A stretch of DNA of 19,463 nucleotides from a virus (taxonomy: Duplodnaviria > Heunggongvirae > Uroviricota > Caudoviricetes), in the IMG/VR virus record IMGVR_UViG_3300035241_000016, positions 64,001-83,463 of that record. One strand, given 5' to 3'. Each line of letters opens with the position of its first letter. Positions within the stretch are counted from its first letter, which is position 1. Position numbers and translations under genes: made by a program. The notes below the pieces were generated by a model. That model worked only from the letters and a program-made list of their open reading frames with translations. It was not told where the DNA came from and searched no databases. This document shows positions 6,515 through 19,463 of the stretch, in pieces.

Positions 6515-6724
6515 GTGACACACGTCATCGAGCGCAAGGGCCACCAAGTACGAACCTGCGACGCCGGCTGGGTGTGCGAGTCTCACCCTGACCGACCCTG
6601 GCCGCACGACGTGTGCGCCGGTCCCGGGATGCCTTGCTCCAACGTCAACCGCACCTGTCCTTATTGGCCGGTGACGCCTGCGCGTGATAAATCATCTGCG
6701 CGACCGCCTGACACGCCATTGTGA
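6515..6724 (+). CDS. Small Cys/His-rich putative metal-binding protein (69 aa)
   Basis: 'CDAGWVCESHPDRPW..VCAGPGMPC' resembles a small hypothetical family recalled from other bacteria (not verified); candidate leaderless promoter; overlaps the 3' end of the DUF1828 gene by 80 nt. Confidence 0.55.
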   Translation: MTHVIERKGHQVRTCDAGWVCESHPDRPWPHDVCAGPGMPCSNVNRTCPYWPVTPARDKSSARPPDTPL

Positions 6725-6983
6725 CAGCGTGCAACGTCTTTCCGATGTCGGATGGCTTGCATCTGGCTCGCAAACTGCCACGGTACAACTCAACGTGGTA
6801 CTGAACCAGGATGTCATCGATAATCGCCTGCGAATGCGTCTTAGTTCGCGGATCGTAGCCGAGAGTAACCAAATGCCTCAGTGTTTCCCCTCGGTCGGAG
6901 ATAACGATCTCGCCCTCTAGGTCTCTTACCTCCACCTCGATGAGGTCACCATCCGGGTGAGCAAACGGGGTGATGATCGACAC
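6645..6983 (-). CDS. DUF1828-domain protein, stand-alone (no DUF1829 C-terminal domain); 112 aa from GTG
   Basis: 'IITPFAHPDGDLIEVEV...IVISDRGETL..L...G' is the DUF1828 signature; ~55% GC by hand count over 6721-6960. True start uncertain (no clear SD; frame open to 7043). Confidence 0.8.
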   Translation of the reverse strand: MSIITPFAHPDGDLIEVEVRDLEGEIVISDRGETLRHLVTLGYDPRTKTHSQAIIDDILVQYHVELYRGSLRARCKPSDIGKTLHAVTMACQAVAQMIYHAQASPANKDRCG

Positions 6984-7275: not shown

Positions 7276-7330
7276 ATGTTACATGGGGTTGACATGCTCG
7301 TTACTTTGATGTAAGCTGCATGTAACAACA
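7276..7330. repeat. Five phased 11-bp degenerate repeats (consensus ATGTWACATGC), with a perfect 9-bp inverted repeat TGTTACATG/CATGTAACA; probable operator array
   Basis: Units: ATGTTACATGG, GGTTGACATGC, TCGTTACTTTG, ATGTAAGCTGC, ATGTAACAACA at 7276, 7287, 7298, 7309, 7320; inverted repeat at 7277-7285 and 7319-7327. Confidence 0.7.
7289..7317 (+). promoter_or_regulatory. Sigma70-type promoter TTGACA-N17-TAAGCT driving the DUF2958 operon
   Basis: Perfect -35 at 7289-7294, 17-nt spacer, TAnnnT -10 at 7312-7317, in the AT-richest intergenic stretch of the window. Confidence 0.8.
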
Positions 7331-7347
7331 TGAGCGTGAGGAGCCCG

Positions 7348-7641
7348 ATGCAACTACTGACCGCCGACGACATCACTCGCCTGCCGGCGCTGTACTCCCA
7401 GGAAACCGAGCCCGACCCAATGGTGCCGGTGAAGTTCTTCACGCCTGACTCTTGCTGGACCTGGTACGCCACAGAGTTCGACGGCGAAGACACCTTCTTC
7501 GGCTACGTCGACGGCCAGTTCGCAGAGCTCGGCTACTTCAGCCTGAGTGAGCTGGCCAGCGCCCGTGGGCCGCTGGGGCTGCCGATCGAACGCGACCTGC
7601 ACTGGAATCCCACGACCCGGCTCTCCACGGTGATGGCATGA
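7348..7641 (+). CDS. DUF2958 family protein (97 aa)
   Basis: 'LPALYSQE...VPVKFFTPDSCWTWYATEFDGEDTFFGYV.G...ELGYFSLSEL...RGPLGLPIERDLHW' is the DUF2958 signature; SD GAGGAG at 7338-7343 favours ATG 7348 over 7330. Confidence 0.9.
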   Translation: MQLLTADDITRLPALYSQETEPDPMVPVKFFTPDSCWTWYATEFDGEDTFFGYVDGQFAELGYFSLSELASARGPLGLPIERDLHWNPTTRLSTVMA

Positions 7642-7832
7642 GCCGAGAGGAAGCCGAGCGCCTCCAGCGCCGCTTCGCCGAACTCAATCGCGAGCGAGCG
7701 GTGGAGGACTGCCAGCACCTTATCCCCTGCCGAACGCACGACGACCACGAGCGGCTTGTCCGCTACGAGCAGCGCCACGCGCGAGGAGGCGCACCACTCA
7801 GCAAAGGAGGTTCCCGTCCAGTCAGCGATTAA
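7638..7832 (+). CDS. Small hypothetical protein with helical N-terminus and C-x-H-x2-x-C-x2-H-x2-H cluster (64 aa)
   Basis: ATGA overlap with the DUF2958 stop; 'CQHLIPCRTHDDH' motif. Confidence 0.6.
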   Translation: MSREEAERLQRRFAELNRERAVEDCQHLIPCRTHDDHERLVRYEQRHARGGAPLSKGGSRPVSD

Positions 7833-7890
7833 CCGCTGAGGCAGCCAAGCAGGGTGCGTCACCACCCGGCCGGCGATCAATGCCTCAGCG
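7822..7890 (+). other. Competing inverted repeats (putative RNA structure) upstream of the SWIM gene
   Basis: CGCTGAGGCA (7834-7843) pairs perfectly with TGCCTCAGCG (7881-7890) and encloses GGGTG-N6-CACCC (7852-7867); TCAGCG (7822-7827) can alternatively pair with CGCTGA (7834-7839). Confidence 0.5.
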
Positions 7891-7909
7891 AGACACAGGA
7901 GGTCTCGCA

Positions 7910-8383
7910 ATGCCAACCCTAACAGCGCCCCGACGGCACGCTGACGTTCACCTGGTCGCGCAGCGCAGCCTCACCCGCGCGAGCGTCCAGCATGTTCAGG
8001 TCCGGTTCGTCGAGCCCGGCCTGTACCGCTCCCATTCGAAGAGCGGCCCCGGCTGGTATGGCGTCACGGCCACCAGGTTCGGCCGCGACATCATCATTAG
8101 GTGCTCCTGCAAGGGCGGGATCTACTTTCGCGACGAGCTCGGGTCGAGCGCCTGTAAGCACGCTGTCGGCCTGGCGAAGCGGCTCGTCCGGCGACGGGAT
8201 GAGGTCAAGCTGCTGAGTCAGGCCGCGGGCGAGGAATACAACGCCTGGCTTGATGGTCAGCGCGACGCCATGATCGCTGAGGACGGGCTGCAGCCAGCTG
8301 CAGATCACCGGCCTGAGCGTGGCCGATCGGTCTCTATCTGCCGACGACGTTCCGAGATCGGGGCGGGCGCCTTATCCCGATGA
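7910..8383 (+). CDS. SWIM-type zinc finger protein (157 aa)
   Basis: 'SHSKSGPGWYGVT...IRCSCKG...ACKHAVG' is the CxC...CxH SWIM pattern with its preceding beta-hairpin; SD AGGAGG at 7897-7902 before ATG 7910. Confidence 0.85.
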   Translation: MPTLTAPRRHADVHLVAQRSLTRASVQHVQVRFVEPGLYRSHSKSGPGWYGVTATRFGRDIIIRCSCKGGIYFRDELGSSACKHAVGLAKRLVRRRDEVKLLSQAAGEEYNAWLDGQRDAMIAEDGLQPAADHRPERGRSVSICRRRSEIGAGALSR

Positions 8384-8426
8384 CACGGGCTCGACCTGCC
8401 TGCATGGGCGCCCTACACGGACTGAG

Positions 8427-11400
8427 CTACTTGCCCAGGAAGAGCCCCATCGGCCCCGCGTTCGCCGCATCCTTCTTCTCGATGGCCGATTGGATGCGGC
8501 TGGTCCTGGTCGCATCTGAGTGGGCTGGGTTGACCGCCATAGCAGAGGAGTAGAGCGACCCAATCTTCATCATGTCCGGATTCGGTTGCAATTTCGCGGC
8601 CGCGTCTTTGTTCCCTGCGCGCACTGCCGCCTGCCAGAGTCGATAGGCCGCGACGGCTTTGCTGATCTCCTGCTCACGCTCTGGATCGGTAACGAACCTG
8701 CCGTATTTCTGGGCATCCTCTTTGGCCAAGGCTCTGAACTTCGGCGGGAGCGCGGTGTGGCCGAAGTTCTCCTTCTCCTCTATGCCGGCCAGGTTCATGG
8801 CGAGCGCCTGGCCCAGCGGCAGGTGGCCGATGCCAGGGATGTACGGCATCTTATCCATAACCATCTCGCGCGGCGTGATGGCCTGGCTCGACCCCAGATA
8901 GGGGTGCAGCTTGCGATCGTACAGACTAGCCAGCAAGTTGGCGTCTTCAAGGATTCCGCCCGATACTCGCGCGGTTCCGAAGCGCACCAGGCTGCTCCCG
9001 AGCTGGGCGGCTCGCTCGCCCGGTGACAGGTCCTTCTCCTGACCCCGCATCAGCGCGTGCGGAATGGCGTGCACTTCCTCGAAGTTCCGGTTGGCGAGGT
9101 AAATCGGACGGCCTTCCGGGTCGCGCTGGCCGGAGTCGATATCCAACGCATGGCCGCTTTTGATTTGCTCGGCCGTGGGCAGGAAGTGGCCCGCGAGGAC
9201 CTGTTGCAGTGCCCCGGTCTCGATCATGTAGCCGGCTACCTTGGTCGCCTCCGCCCGCCGCACGGTGTTGATCACCATGCGCTGCTCCTCCGGGGTCAAG
9301 CCCTTCAGGTAGGCGCCCTTGTCGCCCAGACCTGGCAGTGCCGTCTTGACGAGCGTGATACGGCTCGTCGACCAGCTCGACGTGCTGGCGACATGTGACC
9401 TGACCCAGTTGGTGATAGGCCCGAAATCCGCATTCGCCAGCTGGCCGGACAGGAGATTGGCGACCTTCGCCGCGGCCTCGCCACTCATGCCCTTCGCCTT
9501 GAGCCCGCTGTACACCGCCATCTGCATATCCTGGGCGAAGGTCGCCATCGTCAGGCGGTGATTCCAATCCGACAGCCGGCCCAACGTGGCATCCAGAACG
9601 GCGTGCCCGGTCTTCAGGATGGGGATGTCGGTGCTCTCCTCCAAGGCCTGCGCCAGCTTCCCCGCCACCTCCCGGCCGGTGGAGAAGTGCAGCCCATCGC
9701 GTGCCGCGTCCATGCGCGCCGATGCGCTGGCGGTCATGGCCTTCATGTCCGCGAGGCCGCCGATGGTGGCGTCCGGGAGCGAAAGCGCCTCATGGACCAG
9801 CCGGCTGATGTGGACAAACGGGTTCATGGTGAATATCTGCATGAACAGGGTCTTGGGCTTGTCGAACGCTGCGGTTAGGACGGCTGCCACCTTCGGATGG
9901 TCCTGGGCCACCCCCCAACCAACGTCGCGTCCGCTGTAGCGCAGGATGGCGTCCTTGGCTTCTGGTGTCGCCCAGACAGCGGAATCCGCTTCGCCCGTGA
10001 GCGCCCGCGCCAACCCACGCGACACGTTCGGCACCTGGACGAGTCCCGGCGCCTTGCTACTGGAAACAGCCACCTCGCCGGCATCACTAACTAACTTCTT
10101 GAGGCGCTGGGCGAACTGCAGATCGTTCATAGGCGTCATCGCGGAGCTGACGTACTTGGCGGCGATCACTCCCGGATCCGTCACGACCGACACGCCCTTC
10201 AGGCCGCGCTCCTGGATGAACTGCTGCAGCTCCTTGGGGCTGATAACGGTAGGCCGGCTGCCTGTGGTCATCTCGTGCCAATCCTGGATGTCCCGCAGGA
10301 GCTTGGCCGAGGGAACGCCTCCGGGCCCGCGCACATCCTCAGCGGCGTTCTTGCTCACCTTCAGCAGCGCGGGGATCGCGTCCTCATTGATCCCCTGCAT
10401 GGTCGTCCGCAGCTCACCCAAACCGCCGGCCGAAAACCGCTCGGCGATGTTGTTGACCACCTGCCGCACTGCGTCCACCTTGTTCGCCGCAGCGAATGCC
10501 GCGTCCGAGGCACCTCGAGCACTGCGGCCGGCCAGGATCTCGCCAGCATCCGCAGCGTCCTTCGCCGACACCCCGGCCAGGCTTTCGAGGATCCCGCCCT
10601 GGGCCTCCCGGAGGGATTCCTTCGAGGCAGCCGCTTTGAGTGCCAGCCGGCTGGGGTCGGTGATGTCCTCGTAGCGGGTCAGGTAGTTGTCCTGCAGGTT
10701 CTTCAGGACGTCGTCGAGCTTGCCATCACCGGTGCTGGGGCGGCCGATGCCAATGTCCGATGGAGCCGCCGTCCCCGGGCCCATCGACGAACCTACAGGC
10801 TCAGGCGCAATGTCCGGCTTTACACCTGGTGTAATGACAGCAGATTCGCTAGTAGGTCCAAATGCAACGCCGCGACGCGCCAATTCCTTGCGAGCTGCTG
10901 CCGTTACTATGGCGTCTCTTGACAGTTCATCTACTGGCCGTCCCGCAATCTCCCTAAGCACGCTTTCGTCGACCTGTTCAAATGCTTCTGGCGGAAAAAA
11001 TAGATCCCGCTCGACCTCCCTTCGCGCAGCATTCCATACAGCCTCGACTTGGGCCGGGCTGGCTGCTTTGCGCGTGGTTTCGGTTGCCTGCTGAGCAGGC
11101 GACGCACCTACCGGCTCAGGCTCGAGGGCTGGGGCTTTCGTCGTCTTCCACTTGTCCACGACGTCACGCAGCGCTTGCTGACGTGCTGCAGGGTCGGTGA
11201 TGTCCGCTGCTCGTTGCGCCTCGGAAAGCACCAGGTCAAACGTTGGGCGGTCAAGCCCTGGACCAATGCGCTGGGCTACTTGGAGTAACGCGTCTTCAGC
11301 CCCCGCACTCTTCGTGCTACCTCGCAAGTAACTGTCGTACAGGCTTCGGTGTAGGTTTTCGGCGATAGCGTTCCCCATTTCGCCCACACGACTAAGGTCA

Positions 11401-14400
11401 CCTGAATCGACAGGCGCCACTCCCGCCGCCGGCGCCTCGGCCGCGCGTGCACCGGCCCCCTCCATGACGTCCCCGACGCGCTGCGCGACGGATGGCGCGC
11501 CCTGCATCTTGGCCTCAACCGCCGCCTTCCAGGCCAACTGCTGGTCCTCAGGCAGGCTCGCGACCATGCGCTGAATCACCCGCAGCTGGCTCTCATTCGT
11601 GGCGAGAACCGCCCTGGAGGCGAGGCGTTGGACGGTGTCCTCAGCCAGTTGCGCAGCGGCCTCTGCTGGTGCCTGGCCGAGCGCTGCGGCCAGTTTGGCG
11701 CCGACCTCCGGCGCGCCTGCCGTGGCAGCCGCTTTGGTGGCGGCTTGCGTCGCCTCTGCCGCTACCTCCCTCGCGGCTACACCAGGCAGGCCGGAGGCCG
11801 CTTCTTCAGCCGCTCGACCTGTCGCGGCCGCCCGGGCAGCGCCAGCAGCCGCACCTGGAAATATGAATGCCCGTGGATCGGTTAGGGCGTTGATGGCTCC
11901 GCCGACAACCGGCAACTTCGAAATTTCGGACTCCGTGTAGGGCTTTCCTGACGTTGCTTCGGCCACGACTTCAGCGACCGAATGCGTCGGCGGGAGTTGC
12001 GCTGGCTTGGTAGCAAATGCGCCAAGGCCACCGAACTGGAATGGACCGCCAGCCGGATACCCCGTCACTGGAGAAAGACCAGCTTCCTCCATGTCCTTCC
12101 GATACTTTTCGTAGTCCTCTGGCGTCCACTGGACGGCGCCAGGACGCTCGCCACTCGAAAACACCTTTCCCAGAGCGTCGATGACGCCGCCGATGACCGG
12201 CACCTTGGACGGGCCTGACTCTGCACCGGACGACACCGTCGGATTGGGAATAGTTCCGTCTGGATTCAGGCCACGCGCGACGTTATCGGCACGGGAGACG
12301 GCCTCGAACGCGGCCAGGTTTTCGGGCGTCGGGTTGGCGAGGTATGCCTCGCCCGCCGCAATCACCGCACTCGACGTGCTACTCATGGTGGCTTGACCAG
12401 CGGCCGGAGGGTGAGATGGCATAGATGGCTGCAGCGGCACGCCAACATCAGGAGACGTAAAGCCGTGGGTCGCCGCCTCGTTGGCGTTGTAGGTCGCCTC
12501 CTGCTCTGATGTCGGTTGCGCGGCTGGCTGGATGTCAAAGTTTCCGGCGGCGTTCTTCGTGACCTGCCGGAAAGTGCCGAGCCCGCCGGGCGTGCGCTCG
12601 TTGTATTGGACCACCGGCTGAGCGGCGGCCGTAGCCGCGGCGATCGTGTCCTGGGTGTCAGCCCCTCCGATAGGCCGTGGCTGCTCTGCCTGGGCCTCCA
12701 GGGCGGAGAAGTCGGCCACTGACCCCGTAGGTGGCGCCGGTGGACCAAGCATGACTGGCGGCTCTGCTGCCTGGGTTGCCTGGGGCATAGCAGCGGGTGC
12801 CGGCAGACCAGGTGCGCTTGTAGGCTCCGTCGCTTGCGCGGGAGCAGGAGTTGGCTGCGGAGCTGGCGGTGGCGTGTTAGCCGTCGCCACAGTGGGCGGG
12901 TAGGTGTTCGCGATTACACGAGACAGCGGGTTGGTGTTGGCGATAGCCGGCGACCCACCCTTGGACGGATCCCACTTCGGCTGTGGGGTTGCTTGGCTCT
13001 CCAAGGCTGCGAAGTCAGCGACCGAACCCTGAGGCTGCGGCGGCTCAGCGCCAGCGGCTACCCCCTGGTCGGCAGTGTCAGTCGCCCTGAGGCCACCGTC
13101 GACGGCGCGGCTGAATGCGTCGTAGGAGTACGGGCGTGGCTCAGGGGTAGTGACTCCTAGAAGATTCATGGCATTTTGCACGGCCGCATCAGGCGCCACC
13201 ACTGATGTATCGTCGAGCTCCCCACCCATCTGCTGCTCAGGGGACGACGCTGAAGACTTACCCACACCTACCTGACGCTTGCTTAGGCTCGGCTCAGGGG
13301 TCAGTGGATGATCGACATATAGGGCACCGTTGACGCCATCGCCCACTTCATCGATCTGCTGCGGACTCATCCACGGCGTGCCGCCAAAGCGCGCAACCGC
13401 GACCCCACTGTTGCCGACATGGTACCGGTCAGTATTTGGGTCGTAGCCATCGACGACGAAGTAATGGCGATTGGTGGATACAGCAACCGGGTTCCCATTC
13501 AGCGCATCATGCCGAATGTTCGTCCAGTTCGGAGCCTCCTCCATCTGGTTCGGCACGCCCATCTTGTCGAGCAGTGCCTTCTGGTTATCGATGCCATTCA
13601 TGCCGCCCTTCGGCGTCCAGCCCACCTGCTTGGCGATCTGAAGCGCTTCGCGCAGGCTCGGGTTCCGGCCATTCGCTCGAGCGAAGGCCACAGCCGCGGC
13701 GGGCCCGCAGGCGGCGTTGGCCTCAGCCGCATTCAACCCCTCACCAGCGTCGTACTGGAACGGCACTAGGCCGTTCCAGTCGACCCCTGCGGTTGGAACG
13801 GCTGGCGACACCGCCTGCTCGCCACCCATCTGGCCCTGGTCTTCGGTGGTACTCGGTCCTTGAGCCAGTGGATGGTCGATGAACAGCGCGCCATTCACGC
13901 CACGGCCCAGGCGGGCGATGTCATCGGCCGTCATCCATTCGGAGCCGCCACGGAGCGCGGTCCCGCTCTTCCCGACGTGGTACTGCCCGCTCGCGGTGTC
14001 ATAGCCGTCAGCAACGAAGTAGTGCTGCGGCGTCGATATTGTGACCGGCTTCCCGGACCCAGCGTCCGCAGCGATCGCTCCCCAATCGGGGGCCGTCTCC
14101 AGGCGCGAGGGCACGCCTAGTCTGTCCAGCAGCAGCTTTTGGCTTGCCGGGCCTGCCATACCGGCCTGCGGCGTCCAGCCCACCTTCTTGGCTAGGTCCG
14201 TCGCCTCGCGCAGAGTCGGGTTGCGGCCGTTGGCTCGGGCGAATGCCACTGCAGCGGCCGGCCCGCACGCCGCGTATGCCTCATCTGCGCTCAACCTGGC
14301 GTCGCCGTACTGGTCCGGCACCAGGCCGTCATCCGCGGTGCCGCCCGATCGTCGTTGCGTGGCGCCCTGCCCTGAGCTACCGCCGACTGGCGCTCCGGCA

Positions 14401-14747
14401 ACGACCGGCTGTTGGCCTGCCTTCGTCAGCCGCTCCTGGAGCTGCTTGGAGAACCCCTCGAAACTGAACGGAGACACCTCGTCCGACATCGGCATAAGCC
14501 CTGATGTCGAGAGGGCGTCGTTTGGTTCCGACGTCGCCGCCGATGTGGTTGCGTCCTTCAACGCGCTGTCCACACTGTCACTGAACGACCGATACAGCGC
14601 CTGCTGCTGGACGTCGGCTACGCCAGCATTGATCCCGCTATCCAGAGCGCGGTAGGCGTCGCTGTTCTCCTGCTGCTTGAGCTGCGTCTGACGTGCGGCG
14701 TCAGCCTGCAGGTCGCTGTTCGGAACGATGCTGAGCAGCTTGGGCAT
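8427..14747 (-). CDS. Giant internal virion/ejection protein (2106 aa) with two N-terminal C39-like papain-fold peptidase domains, a Pro/Ala-rich linker and a helical C-terminal core
   Basis: Uninterrupted 6.3 kb ORF, last and largest of three coupled Ala/Gln-rich helical ORFs; two copies of Q...ACGPAA...HYFV.DGYD; C-terminal half resembles large podovirus ejection/polyvalent proteins (inference). Confidence 0.85.
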   Translation of the reverse strand: MPKLLSIVPNSDLQADAARQTQLKQQENSDAYRALDSGINAGVADVQQQALYRSFSDSVDSALKDATTSAATSEPNDALSTSGLMPMSDEVSPFSFEGFSKQLQERLTKAGQQPVVAGAPVGGSSGQGATQRRSGGTADDGLVPDQYGDARLSADEAYAACGPAAAVAFARANGRNPTLREATDLAKKVGWTPQAGMAGPASQKLLLDRLGVPSRLETAPDWGAIAADAGSGKPVTISTPQHYFVADGYDTASGQYHVGKSGTALRGGSEWMTADDIARLGRGVNGALFIDHPLAQGPSTTEDQGQMGGEQAVSPAVPTAGVDWNGLVPFQYDAGEGLNAAEANAACGPAAAVAFARANGRNPSLREALQIAKQVGWTPKGGMNGIDNQKALLDKMGVPNQMEEAPNWTNIRHDALNGNPVAVSTNRHYFVVDGYDPNTDRYHVGNSGVAVARFGGTPWMSPQQIDEVGDGVNGALYVDHPLTPEPSLSKRQVGVGKSSASSPEQQMGGELDDTSVVAPDAAVQNAMNLLGVTTPEPRPYSYDAFSRAVDGGLRATDTADQGVAAGAEPPQPQGSVADFAALESQATPQPKWDPSKGGSPAIANTNPLSRVIANTYPPTVATANTPPPAPQPTPAPAQATEPTSAPGLPAPAAMPQATQAAEPPVMLGPPAPPTGSVADFSALEAQAEQPRPIGGADTQDTIAAATAAAQPVVQYNERTPGGLGTFRQVTKNAAGNFDIQPAAQPTSEQEATYNANEAATHGFTSPDVGVPLQPSMPSHPPAAGQATMSSTSSAVIAAGEAYLANPTPENLAAFEAVSRADNVARGLNPDGTIPNPTVSSGAESGPSKVPVIGGVIDALGKVFSSGERPGAVQWTPEDYEKYRKDMEEAGLSPVTGYPAGGPFQFGGLGAFATKPAQLPPTHSVAEVVAEATSGKPYTESEISKLPVVGGAINALTDPRAFIFPGAAAGAARAAATGRAAEEAASGLPGVAAREVAAEATQAATKAAATAGAPEVGAKLAAALGQAPAEAAAQLAEDTVQRLASRAVLATNESQLRVIQRMVASLPEDQQLAWKAAVEAKMQGAPSVAQRVGDVMEGAGARAAEAPAAGVAPVDSGDLSRVGEMGNAIAENLHRSLYDSYLRGSTKSAGAEDALLQVAQRIGPGLDRPTFDLVLSEAQRAADITDPAARQQALRDVVDKWKTTKAPALEPEPVGASPAQQATETTRKAASPAQVEAVWNAARREVERDLFFPPEAFEQVDESVLREIAGRPVDELSRDAIVTAAARKELARRGVAFGPTSESAVITPGVKPDIAPEPVGSSMGPGTAAPSDIGIGRPSTGDGKLDDVLKNLQDNYLTRYEDITDPSRLALKAAASKESLREAQGGILESLAGVSAKDAADAGEILAGRSARGASDAAFAAANKVDAVRQVVNNIAERFSAGGLGELRTTMQGINEDAIPALLKVSKNAAEDVRGPGGVPSAKLLRDIQDWHEMTTGSRPTVISPKELQQFIQERGLKGVSVVTDPGVIAAKYVSSAMTPMNDLQFAQRLKKLVSDAGEVAVSSSKAPGLVQVPNVSRGLARALTGEADSAVWATPEAKDAILRYSGRDVGWGVAQDHPKVAAVLTAAFDKPKTLFMQIFTMNPFVHISRLVHEALSLPDATIGGLADMKAMTASASARMDAARDGLHFSTGREVAGKLAQALEESTDIPILKTGHAVLDATLGRLSDWNHRLTMATFAQDMQMAVYSGLKAKGMSGEAAAKVANLLSGQLANADFGPITNWVRSHVASTSSWSTSRITLVKTALPGLGDKGAYLKGLTPEEQRMVINTVRRAEATKVAGYMIETGALQQVLAGHFLPTAEQIKSGHALDIDSGQRDPEGRPIYLANRNFEEVHAIPHALMRGQEKDLSPGERAAQLGSSLVRFGTARVSGGILEDANLLASLYDRKLHPYLGSSQAITPREMVMDKMPYIPGIGHLPLGQALAMNLAGIEEKENFGHTALPPKFRALAKEDAQKYGRFVTDPEREQEISKAVAAYRLWQAAVRAGNKDAAAKLQPNPDMMKIGSLYSSAMAVNPAHSDATRTSRIQSAIEKKDAANAGPMGLFLGK
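13293..14327 (-). repeat. Tandem intragenic duplication of a ~160-aa peptidase domain (aa 141-300 and 326-485)
   Basis: Colinear alignment throughout, with 19 identical residues AACGPAAAVAFARANGRNP; both copies are followed by a QMGGE motif. Confidence 0.93.
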
Positions 14748-14757
14748 AGCTCAGCCC

Positions 14758-16212
14758 TCAGGCAGCGATACGGCCGGCGCGCGGTGCCTGAAACCCCGGC
14801 AGCGTCTTCTTGACCGCATCCAGCACGTCGTTGGCGCTGTAGCCCTTGTCCTCGTAAGTGCCGAGCAGGAACTGTTGGGTGTCGGGGTCGAGATCCAGCC
14901 AGTTGCGCGCCACGATCTTGTTCGGCGTCGGCAACGCCTGCATGTAGTCCTGCTTCGTGGCCGTTGCCACCTTGACCGGACCACCGTTGACGGCCTGCTG
15001 ACCGGCCGAGTCGGTACCCGTTACTGCAGGAGCGGAGAATTGCTGAACCGCCGGTGCTGGCGTGGGCGCTGGAGGCGGCGCCAGCGGCTGGGCCGTGAAG
15101 GGCATGTTCTGCTGAATGCGCTGGCCCGCAGCTGATCGCGCTCCGGTGTTATAGCGGGCGCTCTCGCTTGTCTCGAAGCGGCCCTTATTGGCGTCGTACC
15201 AGGCGTCGAAGTCGGCGCCATCGAACTGGTTGTGCGTCCTGGCGTACTCGGCTGCCATCTCGGGCGACACCCAATCGCCGCGAGGGCTCGATGGCCCCCG
15301 ACCAGAGAGGGCGGTCGTGTAGATGGCGTTCCGATCGACGTAGTCGGTATTGGCCGGCAACCAGTTGCGGGCGTCGGTCTCGGCGCCACCGCCGGGATGT
15401 GCCGCCGCGTAGGCGTTGGCCTGCTCAGGCGTGGCCCCCACGTTGAGGGCTGCCTGACGCGACTGCGCCGAATAGTCGGGTGCAGGTGTCGGTGCGCCGG
15501 CCCAGCTGACCTTCGGCTGTTCCGCGGCGGCTGTGCCTCCAGACCCAGTTCCGCTGATATCCTCAGCCAGGCTGCCCAGCGTGAGCGGCTCTACCTTGGC
15601 CTGCGGAGCCTGGAAGCCCGCGAGCTCCTTGCGGCCGGCGATGGCATCCACAGCGTTGCTCAGGCCCATCTCGTTCAGCCCATGCAGCACCGCCTGTTGG
15701 GCGAGGGCATCACGCGGGCCCTTCAGTGATGCCGCCAGTTGCAGCGCGCCCAGTCCCTGGTTGAACTGCTGCTGTTGGGCCTGCATTGTGGGCTGGCCCT
15801 GGTACACACCAGTGAGCGCGGCCTCGCTGAGCGGGAGGCTCATGGCAAACTGCTTGGCCGCCTGCGTGGGCTGGCCGTTGTACTCGCCGGTAGTCCCCGC
15901 CACACTGAGACCGAATTGCAAATCCCACCGACGCTTCAGCTCGTCGAACTGCTTGTCCGACATGTTGCCGATAGCCTGGAGGCCTGCGTTGATCCTGGCC
16001 TCATCGTCAGCACTCATGGGGACGCCGTTGGTAGGAGCCGTCAACGCTTTCAGCGGGGTAGGCGCCGGTGGAGCCGCGGATAACCCGTTGATCTGGTTGT
16101 ACTTCTTCTGTGCCTCTTCCTGGGACGTGTACGTGCCGTACCGGCCGCCGGTCAGGTTATCGATAACCCAGCCATCACCTGGCACGTAGAACGGGTAGGT
16201 CGTTGTCGCCAC
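14758..16212 (-). CDS. Putative internal virion/ejection protein (484 aa)
   Basis: Strong SD GAGGAGG, TAGTG overlap; Ala/Gln/Gly-rich; 26-aa repeats TG.Y.GQPT..A..QF. Confidence 0.75.
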   Translation of the reverse strand: MATTTYPFYVPGDGWVIDNLTGGRYGTYTSQEEAQKKYNQINGLSAAPPAPTPLKALTAPTNGVPMSADDEARINAGLQAIGNMSDKQFDELKRRWDLQFGLSVAGTTGEYNGQPTQAAKQFAMSLPLSEAALTGVYQGQPTMQAQQQQFNQGLGALQLAASLKGPRDALAQQAVLHGLNEMGLSNAVDAIAGRKELAGFQAPQAKVEPLTLGSLAEDISGTGSGGTAAAEQPKVSWAGAPTPAPDYSAQSRQAALNVGATPEQANAYAAAHPGGGAETDARNWLPANTDYVDRNAIYTTALSGRGPSSPRGDWVSPEMAAEYARTHNQFDGADFDAWYDANKGRFETSESARYNTGARSAAGQRIQQNMPFTAQPLAPPPAPTPAPAVQQFSAPAVTGTDSAGQQAVNGGPVKVATATKQDYMQALPTPNKIVARNWLDLDPDTQQFLLGTYEDKGYSANDVLDAVKKTLPGFQAPRAGRIAA

Positions 16213-18341: not shown

Positions 18342-19463
18342 TCATTGCAGGCTTGCCAGGGGCGCGGCGCTCGCCTCTGGCACCACGGCGCCGGGGCCAC
18401 CGCCGGGCACGCTGCCGTTGGCCGGGCCCTGGCCACCACCGCCAGGAGTCAGGGCCAGCTTTCCGACGTCGGGAATCTCCCGCGAACCTATGCTGGGTGG
18501 TGCCGCGGCCGCTGGGAACTTGCCGGTTTGGGCCACCTGGTCGGCCAGCGCCTCCTGGTCGAGCAGGTGGCCGTAGCCCATCTTCTGGGCGGTCACCTGG
18601 TCCTGCCAGCGCACGTACCAGCGCGACTGGCGCATGCGATCGAGCGCCCGGCTGCGGCGCACCTCGTCGGGGTTGCGGCCCTGCGCCTCGATGGCCTGAT
18701 CCAGGCTCTCGAAGCCGGCGTCCACCTGCTCCTTGTGGTAGCGGCCCTCGATGAGCTGGCCGGTGGGCCGCTCGGGATCGATCTCCCAGCGCAGGCCCAC
18801 GCCATCCTTCAGGTCGTCGGGGCCCAGCACCAGGAACTTCGCGCCCTTGCCGCTGCCGGCCTGCACCCACACCGGCTCCTTCACCTTGTCGGCCACCAGC
18901 CGCCACAGGAAGCGCGTGGCCTCCTCGAGCATGGTCGCCAGGTGCACGCAGAAGGGGTTGTCCTGGATCTTCGCCTCGGCGATGACCTGCGCGATGGCGA
19001 AGCCCGCGCCCTCCATGCCGGCGCCGAGCTGGTTGGGCAGCCGCGGGCTGGAAAGCTGCTCGATGAGGCGGCTGACCAGCTCGATCTCCCGCGCCAGCGA
19101 TTGCGGATCCGGCCGCACGGGGAAGGGCTTCATCTGGTGGCCGGGCTGCATGTACAGGATCTGCCGCAGCTTCCAGTCCTCGGATTTCTTGGGCTTGCCG
19201 TCCATGCCCAGCACCGGCGCGGCGGTGTCCAGCGCCTCGTCCACCACGGGGGCGAAGGCATCGATGGCCACGATGTTGGCGTGCACCGTGAGCAGGTAGG
19301 AGCGGTACTCGACCAGCCAGCGCTTCATTTCGGCCACGCCCCAGCCCACCTTGCGGTTGGTCCAGTAGCCGAACATCAGGCCGGGCGCCTGGAAGTAGGG
19401 CACCTGCTTGTAGCCGTGCTGCCACTGGGCCACCTGCTGGGCCGCGTTGCCGACGCCGCTTAT
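18342..19463 (-). CDS. Portal (head-tail connector) protein, C-terminal part; 5' end outside window
   Basis: Frame open to the window edge (373 aa visible); 'VPYFQAPG...GWGVAE...L..Y..YLLT...N......P' pattern, a helical crown and a Gly/Pro tail as in podovirus portals. Confidence 0.8.
   Translation of the reverse strand: MSGVGNAAQQVAQWQHGYKQVPYFQAPGLMFGYWTNRKVGWGVAEMKRWLVEYRSYLLTVHANIVAIDAFAPVVDEALDTAAPVLGMDGKPKKSEDWKLRQILYMQPGHQMKPFPVRPDPQSLAREIELVSRLIEQLSSPRLPNQLGAGMEGAGFAIAQVIAEAKIQDNPFCVHLATMLEEATRFLWRLVADKVKEPVWVQAGSGKGAKFLVLGPDDLKDGVGLRWEIDPERPTGQLIEGRYHKEQVDAGFESLDQAIEAQGRNPDEVRRSRALDRMRQSRWYVRWQDQVTAQKMGYGHLLDQEALADQVAQTGKFPAAAAPPSIGSREIPDVGKLALTPGGGGQGPANGSVPGGGPGAVVPEASAAPLASLQ

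Follow-up and report, generated by a model that had tools for sequence, protein, structure and literature searches.

Tandem papain-fold cysteine peptidase domains at the N-terminus of a giant late-region protein of an uncultivated phage

Phages must open the cell wall locally to deliver their DNA, and the enzymes that do so are sought as antibacterials. The locus described here raises the question of what it means for a phage to carry one candidate enzyme of this kind twice, in tandem, on a single giant protein. It lies in a stretch of 19,463 nucleotides (positions 64,001 to 83,463 of IMG/VR virus record IMGVR_UViG_3300035241_000016, a member of the Caudoviricetes), which we call the window. 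An original prediction, made from the sequence alone, had proposed two C39-like cysteine peptidases at window positions 13293-14327, which correspond to amino acids (aa) 141-485 of a 2106-aa open reading frame (ORF), P0001. The tandem copies were borne out (96 of 163 residues identical, 59%, E 4e-55 by BLASTP), and we think it somewhat probable that they represent an ordinary cell-wall-breaching peptidase module that has been doubled in this phage. The giant ORF, the two copies and their key codons are placed as follows.

8427 to 14747, minus strand: giant ORF P0001, 2106 aa, the longest ORF of the window, with a stop-free translation and a G+C fraction at third codon positions (GC3) of 0.74
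13851 to 14330, minus strand: peptidase copy 1, aa 140-299 (Q146, C161, H242, K260), placed by BLASTP and the family alignment
13287 to 13775, minus strand: peptidase copy 2, aa 325-487 (Q331, C347, H428, N446), placed by Pfam, an AlphaFold2 (AF2) model and BLASTP
14265 to 14267, minus strand: Cys161 codon of copy 1, the predicted nucleophile, from its family column
14022 to 14024, minus strand: His242 codon of copy 1, the predicted general base, from its family column
13707 to 13709, minus strand: Cys347 codon of copy 2, residue 28 of the AF2 model and the first of helix 28-39
13464 to 13466, minus strand: His428 codon of copy 2, residue 109 of the AF2 model, directly before strand 110-113
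13968 to 13970, minus strand: Lys260 codon of copy 1, in a hypervariable family column
13410 to 13412, minus strand: Asn446 codon of copy 2, in the same hypervariable column as Lys260

All eight residues singled out by the prediction lie where it had placed them, including the Lys of a GKSG motif in copy 1 and the Asn of a GNSG motif in copy 2. At the DNA level the duplication is visible as a 215-nt repeat with 72% identity and a spacing of 558 nt. Nucleotide identity across the 160 aligned codons is 65%, with 56 codons identical, 40 differing synonymously and 64 non-synonymously, and over the whole domain the method of Nei and Gojobori (NG86) gives a non-synonymous divergence (dN) of 0.33, a synonymous divergence (dS) of 1.25 and a dN/dS of 0.26. 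Because dS between the copies is near saturation, the duplication is old and has seen no recent gene conversion; taken over its whole length, the domain has been under constraint. The copies share an identical stretch of 19 residues, AACGPAAAVAFARANGRNP, at aa 159-177 and aa 345-363, in which 10 of the 19 codons differ. These synonymous differences had been counted correctly, but taking them as a sign of purifying selection is circular, because residues picked for being identical can differ only synonymously.

The duplication is, so far, unique. A word-indexed search (E<=0.001) recovered at least 264 giant metagenomic relatives of 1158-3686 aa, and at least 167 IMG/VR contigs encode relatives; a single copy is present in all 119 giant relatives analyzed and at all 80 IMG/VR loci scanned in six frames. 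Four relatives that had seemed to carry two copies (P0097, P0107, P0110 and P0112, with ~70% query cover) proved to have single domains whose alignments run into low-complexity linkers. Many of the contigs encoding a single-copy giant protein are 38-45 kb long, which suggests a large group of uncultivated soil phages with genomes of ~42 kb, in which the giant protein would occupy >10% of the genome. A tblastn search of 50,697 phage records with the whole giant protein gave no match.

A quick maximum likelihood tree leaves room for more than one history of the two copies. In it, copy 2 groups with P0003 and P0005 (support of 97 in the Shimodaira-Hasegawa-like approximate likelihood ratio test, SH-aLRT), and copy 1 falls elsewhere in the same 21-member clade. 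The approximately unbiased test does not reject sisterhood of the copies (p 0.52), and the tree constrained to it is 2.08 log-likelihood units better. The branches leading to the two copies are long (0.92 and 0.88; median 0.23). Most relatives share only the peptidase domain with P0001, the remainder of which is not alignable to them, and the domain is thus a mobile module. On contig L005 (positions 8001-8852) the peptidase is a separate gene of ~285 aa, followed by a 103-aa gene and then a 968-aa gene, and on contig L006 (positions 8001-8870) a separate peptidase gene of ~285 aa stands immediately ahead of a 1373-aa gene, both in the same late-gene neighbourhood.

The fold of the domain is papain-like. 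The AF2 model of copy 2, built from a 52-sequence alignment, has a predicted local distance difference test score (pLDDT) of 90.8 and a predicted template modelling score (pTM) of 0.86, and it shows an alpha+beta papain-like fold in which Cys347 begins the long helix and His428 lies just ahead of a beta-strand, the canonical papain-like positions. Against the PDB, Foldseek matched this model to the C39 domain of ComA (E 3e-4, template modelling scores 0.55/0.67), to the phytochelatin-synthase-like protein Alr0975 and to a papain-like toxin. An exhaustive VIA-align search returned a tied top group consisting of PeiR (Z 12.9), ComA (Z 12.7) and the B. anthracis C39-like peptidase 3erv (Z 12.3), with PCAT1 and LahT (Z 12.0-12.2) and Alr0975 (Z 11.9) next, followed by staphopain and SpeB. 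All 26 matches at Z >= 8 are papain-like enzymes, and matches among the Swiss-Prot models agree with this fold. By sequence, the Pfam model PF13529 (Peptidase_C39_2, cut-off 24) scores 30.9 bits on the whole protein, 24.5 on copy 2 alone and 18.5 on copy 1 alone, and nine relatives score 17.9-23.4 bits, under the cut-off. The profile match, the model and the structural matches together uphold the earlier claim of a papain-like, C39-like fold. Membership of Peptidase_C39_2 itself is borderline: only the whole protein and copy 2 reach the cut-off, and the subfamily lies at the edge of the model. PF03412 (the true, bacteriocin-processing C39), searched at E<=0.001 across the entire genome of the phage, matched control genomes but nothing here; NlpC/P60 and CHAP (PF00877, PF05257) had none at E<=1 in the giant protein; no ABC transporter domain was found in the giant protein or in the neighbouring proteins scanned; and searches of the PDB by sequence (phmmer and profile searches) yielded nothing meaningful.

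Comparison with characterized enzymes sharpens this picture. Like 3erv (148 aligned residues) and Peptidase_C39_2 more generally (positions 11-137 of the 143 in PF13529 are matched), the domain has its Cys at a helix N-terminus and its His before a strand, but the subfamily described here is marked by strongly conserved motifs of its own and by an invariant Gln that precedes the Cys by 15-16 residues. The C39 domains of ComA, PCAT1 and LahT are alike in fold (Z 12.0-12.7, root-mean-square deviation 2.8-3.3 A) and in the Gln/Cys/His arrangement, and GG motifs follow the domains in P0001; unlike those systems, P0001 has neither a PF03412 match nor an ABC transporter, and the column equivalent to the catalytic Asp is not conserved. 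The Gln also differs in its spacing, lying at Cys-6 in ComA (Q11/C17) and at Cys-15/16 in the present subfamily. PeiR (PDB 8z4h), which with PeiW and PeiP comes from methanogen (pro)viruses, is the top structural match (139 aligned residues); it too is a cysteine peptidase associated with viruses, and it cleaves the peptide cross-links of a cell wall. It differs from the domain in sequence (14% identity), in its wall substrate and in being a lysis enzyme rather than a giant particle protein, and it ties with non-wall peptidases.

Conservation of residues bears on whether both copies work. Residue counts here refer to 235 distinct domain sequences of the family, and counts of invariant and conserved columns to the 119 giant relatives. 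The Gln331 column is Gln in 230 of 230 members, the Cys347 column is Cys in 232 of 233, and the His428 column is His in 235 of 235. Eighteen columns are invariant, and each copy keeps all 18 of them as well as 42 of the 43 columns conserved at >=95%. Because the Gln/Cys/His set and every invariant family residue are kept, both copies are probably active; together with the dN/dS value, this makes both look intact and functional, and to that extent the earlier view is supported.

The two copies have nevertheless not diverged from the family equally. Copy 1 is nearer the consensus, agreeing with it at 56 of the 59 columns conserved at >=90% (three departures, including N233K and G282R) and showing 61-67% similarity to relatives, and copy 2 is more derived, agreeing at 52 of the 59 (seven departures, including G334A, I423V, A432V, E458P, T461S and G470D) with a similarity of 49-56%. 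These departures and the long branches of both copies would fit a protein in which one copy is catalytically dead or regulatory, for example as a substrate-binding or inhibitory partner, and only the other cuts. We regard this as quite improbable, given that the catalytic set and all invariant columns persist in both copies under a dN/dS well below one, and that single-copy relatives with up to 12 departures from the consensus exist.

Nor does the contrast between Lys260 and Asn446, which had been read as a difference in third catalytic residues and as a sign of sub-functionalisation, set the copies apart. By its spacing, its hairpin register and the Ser-Gly that follows, position 260/446 can be equated with Asn175 of papain in the alignment, but to call these residues third catalytic residues is an interpretation and not an observation. 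The column is hypervariable (Arg in 106 members, Gln in 45, Ala in 33, Ser in 19, Lys in 14, Thr in 9, Asn in 8 and Glu in 1), and both Lys and Asn are ordinary minority states in single-copy members. The commonest residue, Arg, cannot accept a hydrogen bond from His and so cannot play the part of Asn. A contrast in so variable a column is no evidence of a catalytic switch, and the sub-functionalisation argument is not supported. Further along from the His, the two copies agree in several other conserved polar columns, namely D247/D433 (Asp in 207 members), D250/D436 (Asp in 178, Asn in 53) and H257/H443 (His in 209, Tyr in 9, Asn in 6 and Asp in 5, plus Arg and Phe). D250/D436, with a Pro after it, probably forms an Asx-Pro turn, and the family may work as a Cys-His dyad or with another third residue.

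The company that the domain keeps in its relatives points to the cell wall. Glycosidase neighbours were found in the 119 relatives through Pfam matches extended by local profiles: an SLT domain adjoins the peptidase in 54 and a glucosaminidase in 16 (70/119 together), with a gap of 13-59 aa (median 36), and the glycosidase stands ahead of the peptidase in 65 relatives and behind it in 5. In P0035 the domain immediately behind the peptidase is NlpC/P60, which is on record for P0112 as well, and a 295-aa relative, P0167, combines the peptidase with an SH3_3 wall-binding domain. Annotated BFVD neighbours of the model include phi29-type wall hydrolases, cyanophage lysozymes, a tape measure protein, a Gordonia endolysin and mycobacteriophage LysA. 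Finally, an exhaustive search of 1.84 billion proteins with the C-terminal half of P0001 found 14 representatives sharing a core at aa ~1620-1905, two of which have NlpC/P60/CHAP at the N-terminus instead of the C39-like peptidase, so that one wall peptidase has been exchanged for another on a common scaffold. Because of the SLT/glucosaminidase, NlpC/P60 and SH3 neighbours, the BFVD matches and this swap, a peptidoglycan peptidase is the best-supported reading among the roles that the original prediction had offered for the domains (wall endopeptidase, self-processing protease or injected effector).

In P0001 itself, neither Pfam nor profiles built from relatives detected an SLT/transglycosylase or a glucosaminidase. 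The proposal that this phage uses a double peptidase in place of a transglycosylase thus holds in outline, P0001 being without the SLT/glucosaminidase partner that most relatives carry and having a second peptidase; copy 2 fills the slot held by SLT or glucosaminidase in relatives in which the peptidase comes first (P0014, P0012 and P0039). In the layout of N-terminal SLT/glucosaminidase and peptidase, the relatives of P0001 resemble virion-associated peptidoglycan hydrolases, namely phi29 gp13, T7 gp16 with its N-terminal SLT, and the DarB-like giants of JC1 and Bcep22, which begin with a transglycosylase and end with LPD38. P0001 itself has no glycosidase and no LPD38. The peptidase of phi29 gp13 is of class M23, as against the papain-like one of P0001.

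Several observations weigh against a wall peptidase. In 49 of the 119 relatives no recognised glycosidase lies beside the domain, and P0001, P0003 and P0005 have neither glycosidase nor LPD38, so that inference from neighbours is weakest precisely here. The modelled fold does not fix the substrate, because the wall peptidase PeiR is tied with protein-processing peptidases (C39, SpeB, staphopain and UfSP). The placing of the giant protein in the virion, moreover, comes from gene order alone, portal families being unmatched.

The structural neighbours would also suit a different substrate. They include the papain-like toxins/effectors 9l5u, the CdiA-CT toxin 8ssk and E. coli cysteine protease effector 1, and the domains might therefore cleave host proteins, for example defence or envelope proteins, after ejection, rather than peptidoglycan. 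Giant phage proteins often carry effectors (PMC5512222), and some relatives of P0001 have zeta-toxin or GNAT domains as well. Yet the constant near neighbours of the domain are wall enzymes and not the nucleic-acid or anti-restriction domains typical of effectors, and 18 invariant columns across phages of evidently different hosts suit a universal substrate such as peptidoglycan better than fast-evolving defence proteins, so that an effector role seems to us about as improbable as a dead copy. P0001 resembles polyvalent proteins in being a giant multidomain protein in the late region, and many of its relatives are labelled LPD38 or 'large polyvalent protein'; it differs from them in having one kind of recognisable enzymatic domain, present twice. 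The peptidases reported in a survey of polyvalent proteins are zincin-like, assemblin-like, DD and LonC peptidases, with no papain-like one among them (Iyer et al. 2017, PMC5512222).

A short motif in the linkers raises the further prospect that the giant protein is itself the substrate. QMGGE occurs after each copy:

13818 to 13832, minus strand: QMGGE after copy 1, aa 306-310, found by motif search (P0003 has HQMGGEL)
13218 to 13232, minus strand: QMGGE after copy 2, aa 506-510, found by motif search

These are the only two occurrences in the genome. The motif has been kept while the linkers around it diverged: in the closest relative, the single-copy P0003, the corresponding site reads HQMGGEL, and in P0005 it reads VGGQE. 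Self-cleavage is conceivable because C39 enzymes cut after Gly-Gly: the C39-like domains would cut the giant protein between the second Gly and the Glu of QMGGE after each copy, freeing the N-terminal modules from the C-terminal part, either during assembly or after ejection. Double-glycine C39 peptidases are among the matches to the fold (Z 12-12.7), the separate peptidase genes of L005 and L006 indicate a domain able to work as a free polypeptide, and autoprocessing has been proposed for the metallopeptidases of polyvalent proteins (PMC5512222). Against this stand the restriction of QMGGE to a small clade, most relatives having a DQxxNPxxFLDRxK tail instead; the lack of family-wide enrichment of GG within 30 aa after the domain (40/119, against 31.7 expected); the failure of PF03412 to find anything in the genome; and the tight pairing with SLT/glucosaminidase, which self-processing leaves unexplained. 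A complex prediction for copy 2 with the linker at aa 490-530, which contains QMGGE, gave a score of 0.00 and a mark of 0.32 and counts neither way. On balance we consider self-processing unlikely. Slightly less likely still is its fuller form, in which the giant protein would be delivered as a polyprotein and each domain would cut its own QMGGE before the Glu, so that two free peptidases and the long helical C-terminal portion would be set loose within the host envelope. If true, this would be the double-glycine processing of bacteriocin export borrowed for phage genome delivery.

The reading that we favour, a doubled wall peptidase module, also depends on where the giant gene lies, and the surrounding genes are the following.

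14758 to 16212, minus strand: 484-aa gene just upstream of the giant gene, with a 329-aa homolog at the same place in L004
16212 to 17960, minus strand: 582-aa gene, with a 398-aa homolog in L004 and no family match
18342 to 19463, minus strand: 3' part of an ORF of ~645 aa that runs across the contig junction, a portal candidate from its position and its similarity to a gene of L005
4156 to 5019, minus strand: major capsid protein (phrog_267, E 2.5e-28)

The large terminase and the major capsid protein are the only structural or packaging genes identified by family models. The ORF of ~645 aa is a portal candidate because it is similar to the 654-aa gene that follows the terminase in L005 (36% identity over the full length). 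A supposed direct terminal repeat is exactly 127 bp long (window 19337-19463 and genome 1-127), and this ORF spans the junction when the genome is circularised; the repeat is probably an assembler k-mer overlap, of a genome circularly assembled rather than truly terminally repeated. The portal families PF04860 and PF16510 had no match in the genome, and PF12236 matched neither the genome nor the controls and is hence uninformative. Searches of PHROGs, NCBIfam and Pfam with the remainder of the giant protein and with its neighbours of 582, 484, 468 and 363 aa returned nothing, and ESM Atlas was uninformative on the 582-aa and 484-aa proteins. Contig L004 is the closest relative by synteny. Its genes run in the order terminase, 115 aa, 398 aa, 329 aa, 79 aa and a giant of 1744 aa that has one peptidase copy; homology to the window pairs its 398-aa protein with the 582-aa one, its 329-aa protein with the 484-aa one, and the two giants with each other.

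The order of genes is terminase, portal candidate, a few genes, giant gene and capsid gene, and it is the same in the relatives. T7 gp16 is encoded after the tail genes, whereas the giant gene here lies between the portal candidate and the capsid gene, which by synteny looks like the place of head-internal or MuF-type proteins and not that of T7 gp16. It is plausible from this arrangement that the giant protein is packaged in the particle and ejected with the DNA. Mass spectrometry of purified JC1 virions detected gp69, an analogous giant protein that has a transglycosylase at its N-terminus and LPD38 at its C-terminus (PMC9144972). On the opposite strand, window 7330-8383 (plus strand), which separates the giant gene from the capsid module, encodes a DUF2958 protein (E 7e-19) and an ORF with a weak SWIM finger, and a DUF1828 lies at 6645-6983 (minus strand).

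Beyond the peptidases, P0001 has a conserved region near its C-terminus:

9039 to 9881, minus strand: conserved helical C-terminal core, aa ~1623-1903, common to P0003, P0005 and 13 other representatives, with a pLDDT of 64.9

Neither viral_contigs nor the word-indexed search yielded a close relative of the C-terminal half, and the AF2 model of the core, whose confidence is moderate, had no match in the PDB. The core contains the motifs NPxIH, NHxLF...GQRxQ, W...N.AFAG.W and LSGxWPWQN..GR.LDI.TG, and it sits at the position that LPD38 occupies in other giants. Of the 119 relatives that bear the peptidase, about 98 are matched by a C-terminal-region profile seeded with LPD38. For P0001, only a language-model lead points to LPD38 (score 0.96): of the 100 nearest clusters, 15 carry this domain, in 28% of the members for the one listed. 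In P0001, LPD38 (PF18857) gave no Pfam match at E<=1 and none with a profile from the 98 relatives, and a relationship to LPD38 was not supported by hhalign (probability <1%).

Some shorter internal repeats were also seen. The 13-residue motif GSVADF[AS]ALE[SA]QA occurs twice, ~100 residues apart (aa 574-586 and 675-687; window 12687-12725 and 12990-13028), in a linker rich in Ala, Pro and Thr at aa ~520-760. PV[IV]GG.I.AL also occurs twice (aa 850-859 and 946-955; window 11883-11912 and 12171-12200), and a similar motif, vPVvGGvK, is conserved inside the C-terminal core of relatives. A 33-nt direct repeat (window 10785-10817 and 11100-11132, 79% identity, spacing 315 nt) has one copy that overlaps the coding of an EPEPVG motif at aa 1209-1216.

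In the mechanism that we propose, the two domains would be old tandem paralogs of a widespread, so far unnamed papain-fold cysteine peptidase subfamily. Uncultivated phages would carry it as a regular N-terminal module of giant proteins whose genes lie between those for packaging/portal and that for the capsid; these proteins probably enter the particle and leave it together with the DNA. Most likely the module cleaves peptidoglycan in its peptide part, and it would work beside a glycan-cutting SLT or glucosaminidase so that the wall is opened locally as the genome is delivered. This phage lacks the glycan-cutting partner, and its peptidase has been duplicated.

A virion-associated wall hydrolase module is a known theme; what is new is its doubled arrangement, in a large and essentially undescribed peptidase subfamily. 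The analysis defines a cysteine-peptidase module with hundreds of members on giant phage proteins, one that is barely recognised by Pfam. A doubled peptidase without a glycan cutter hints at a host wall whose peptides make the better target, or at an attack on two peptide bonds. Moreover, copies 1 and 2 provide a natural pair of diverged paralogs with which the specificity of this peptidase family may be probed.

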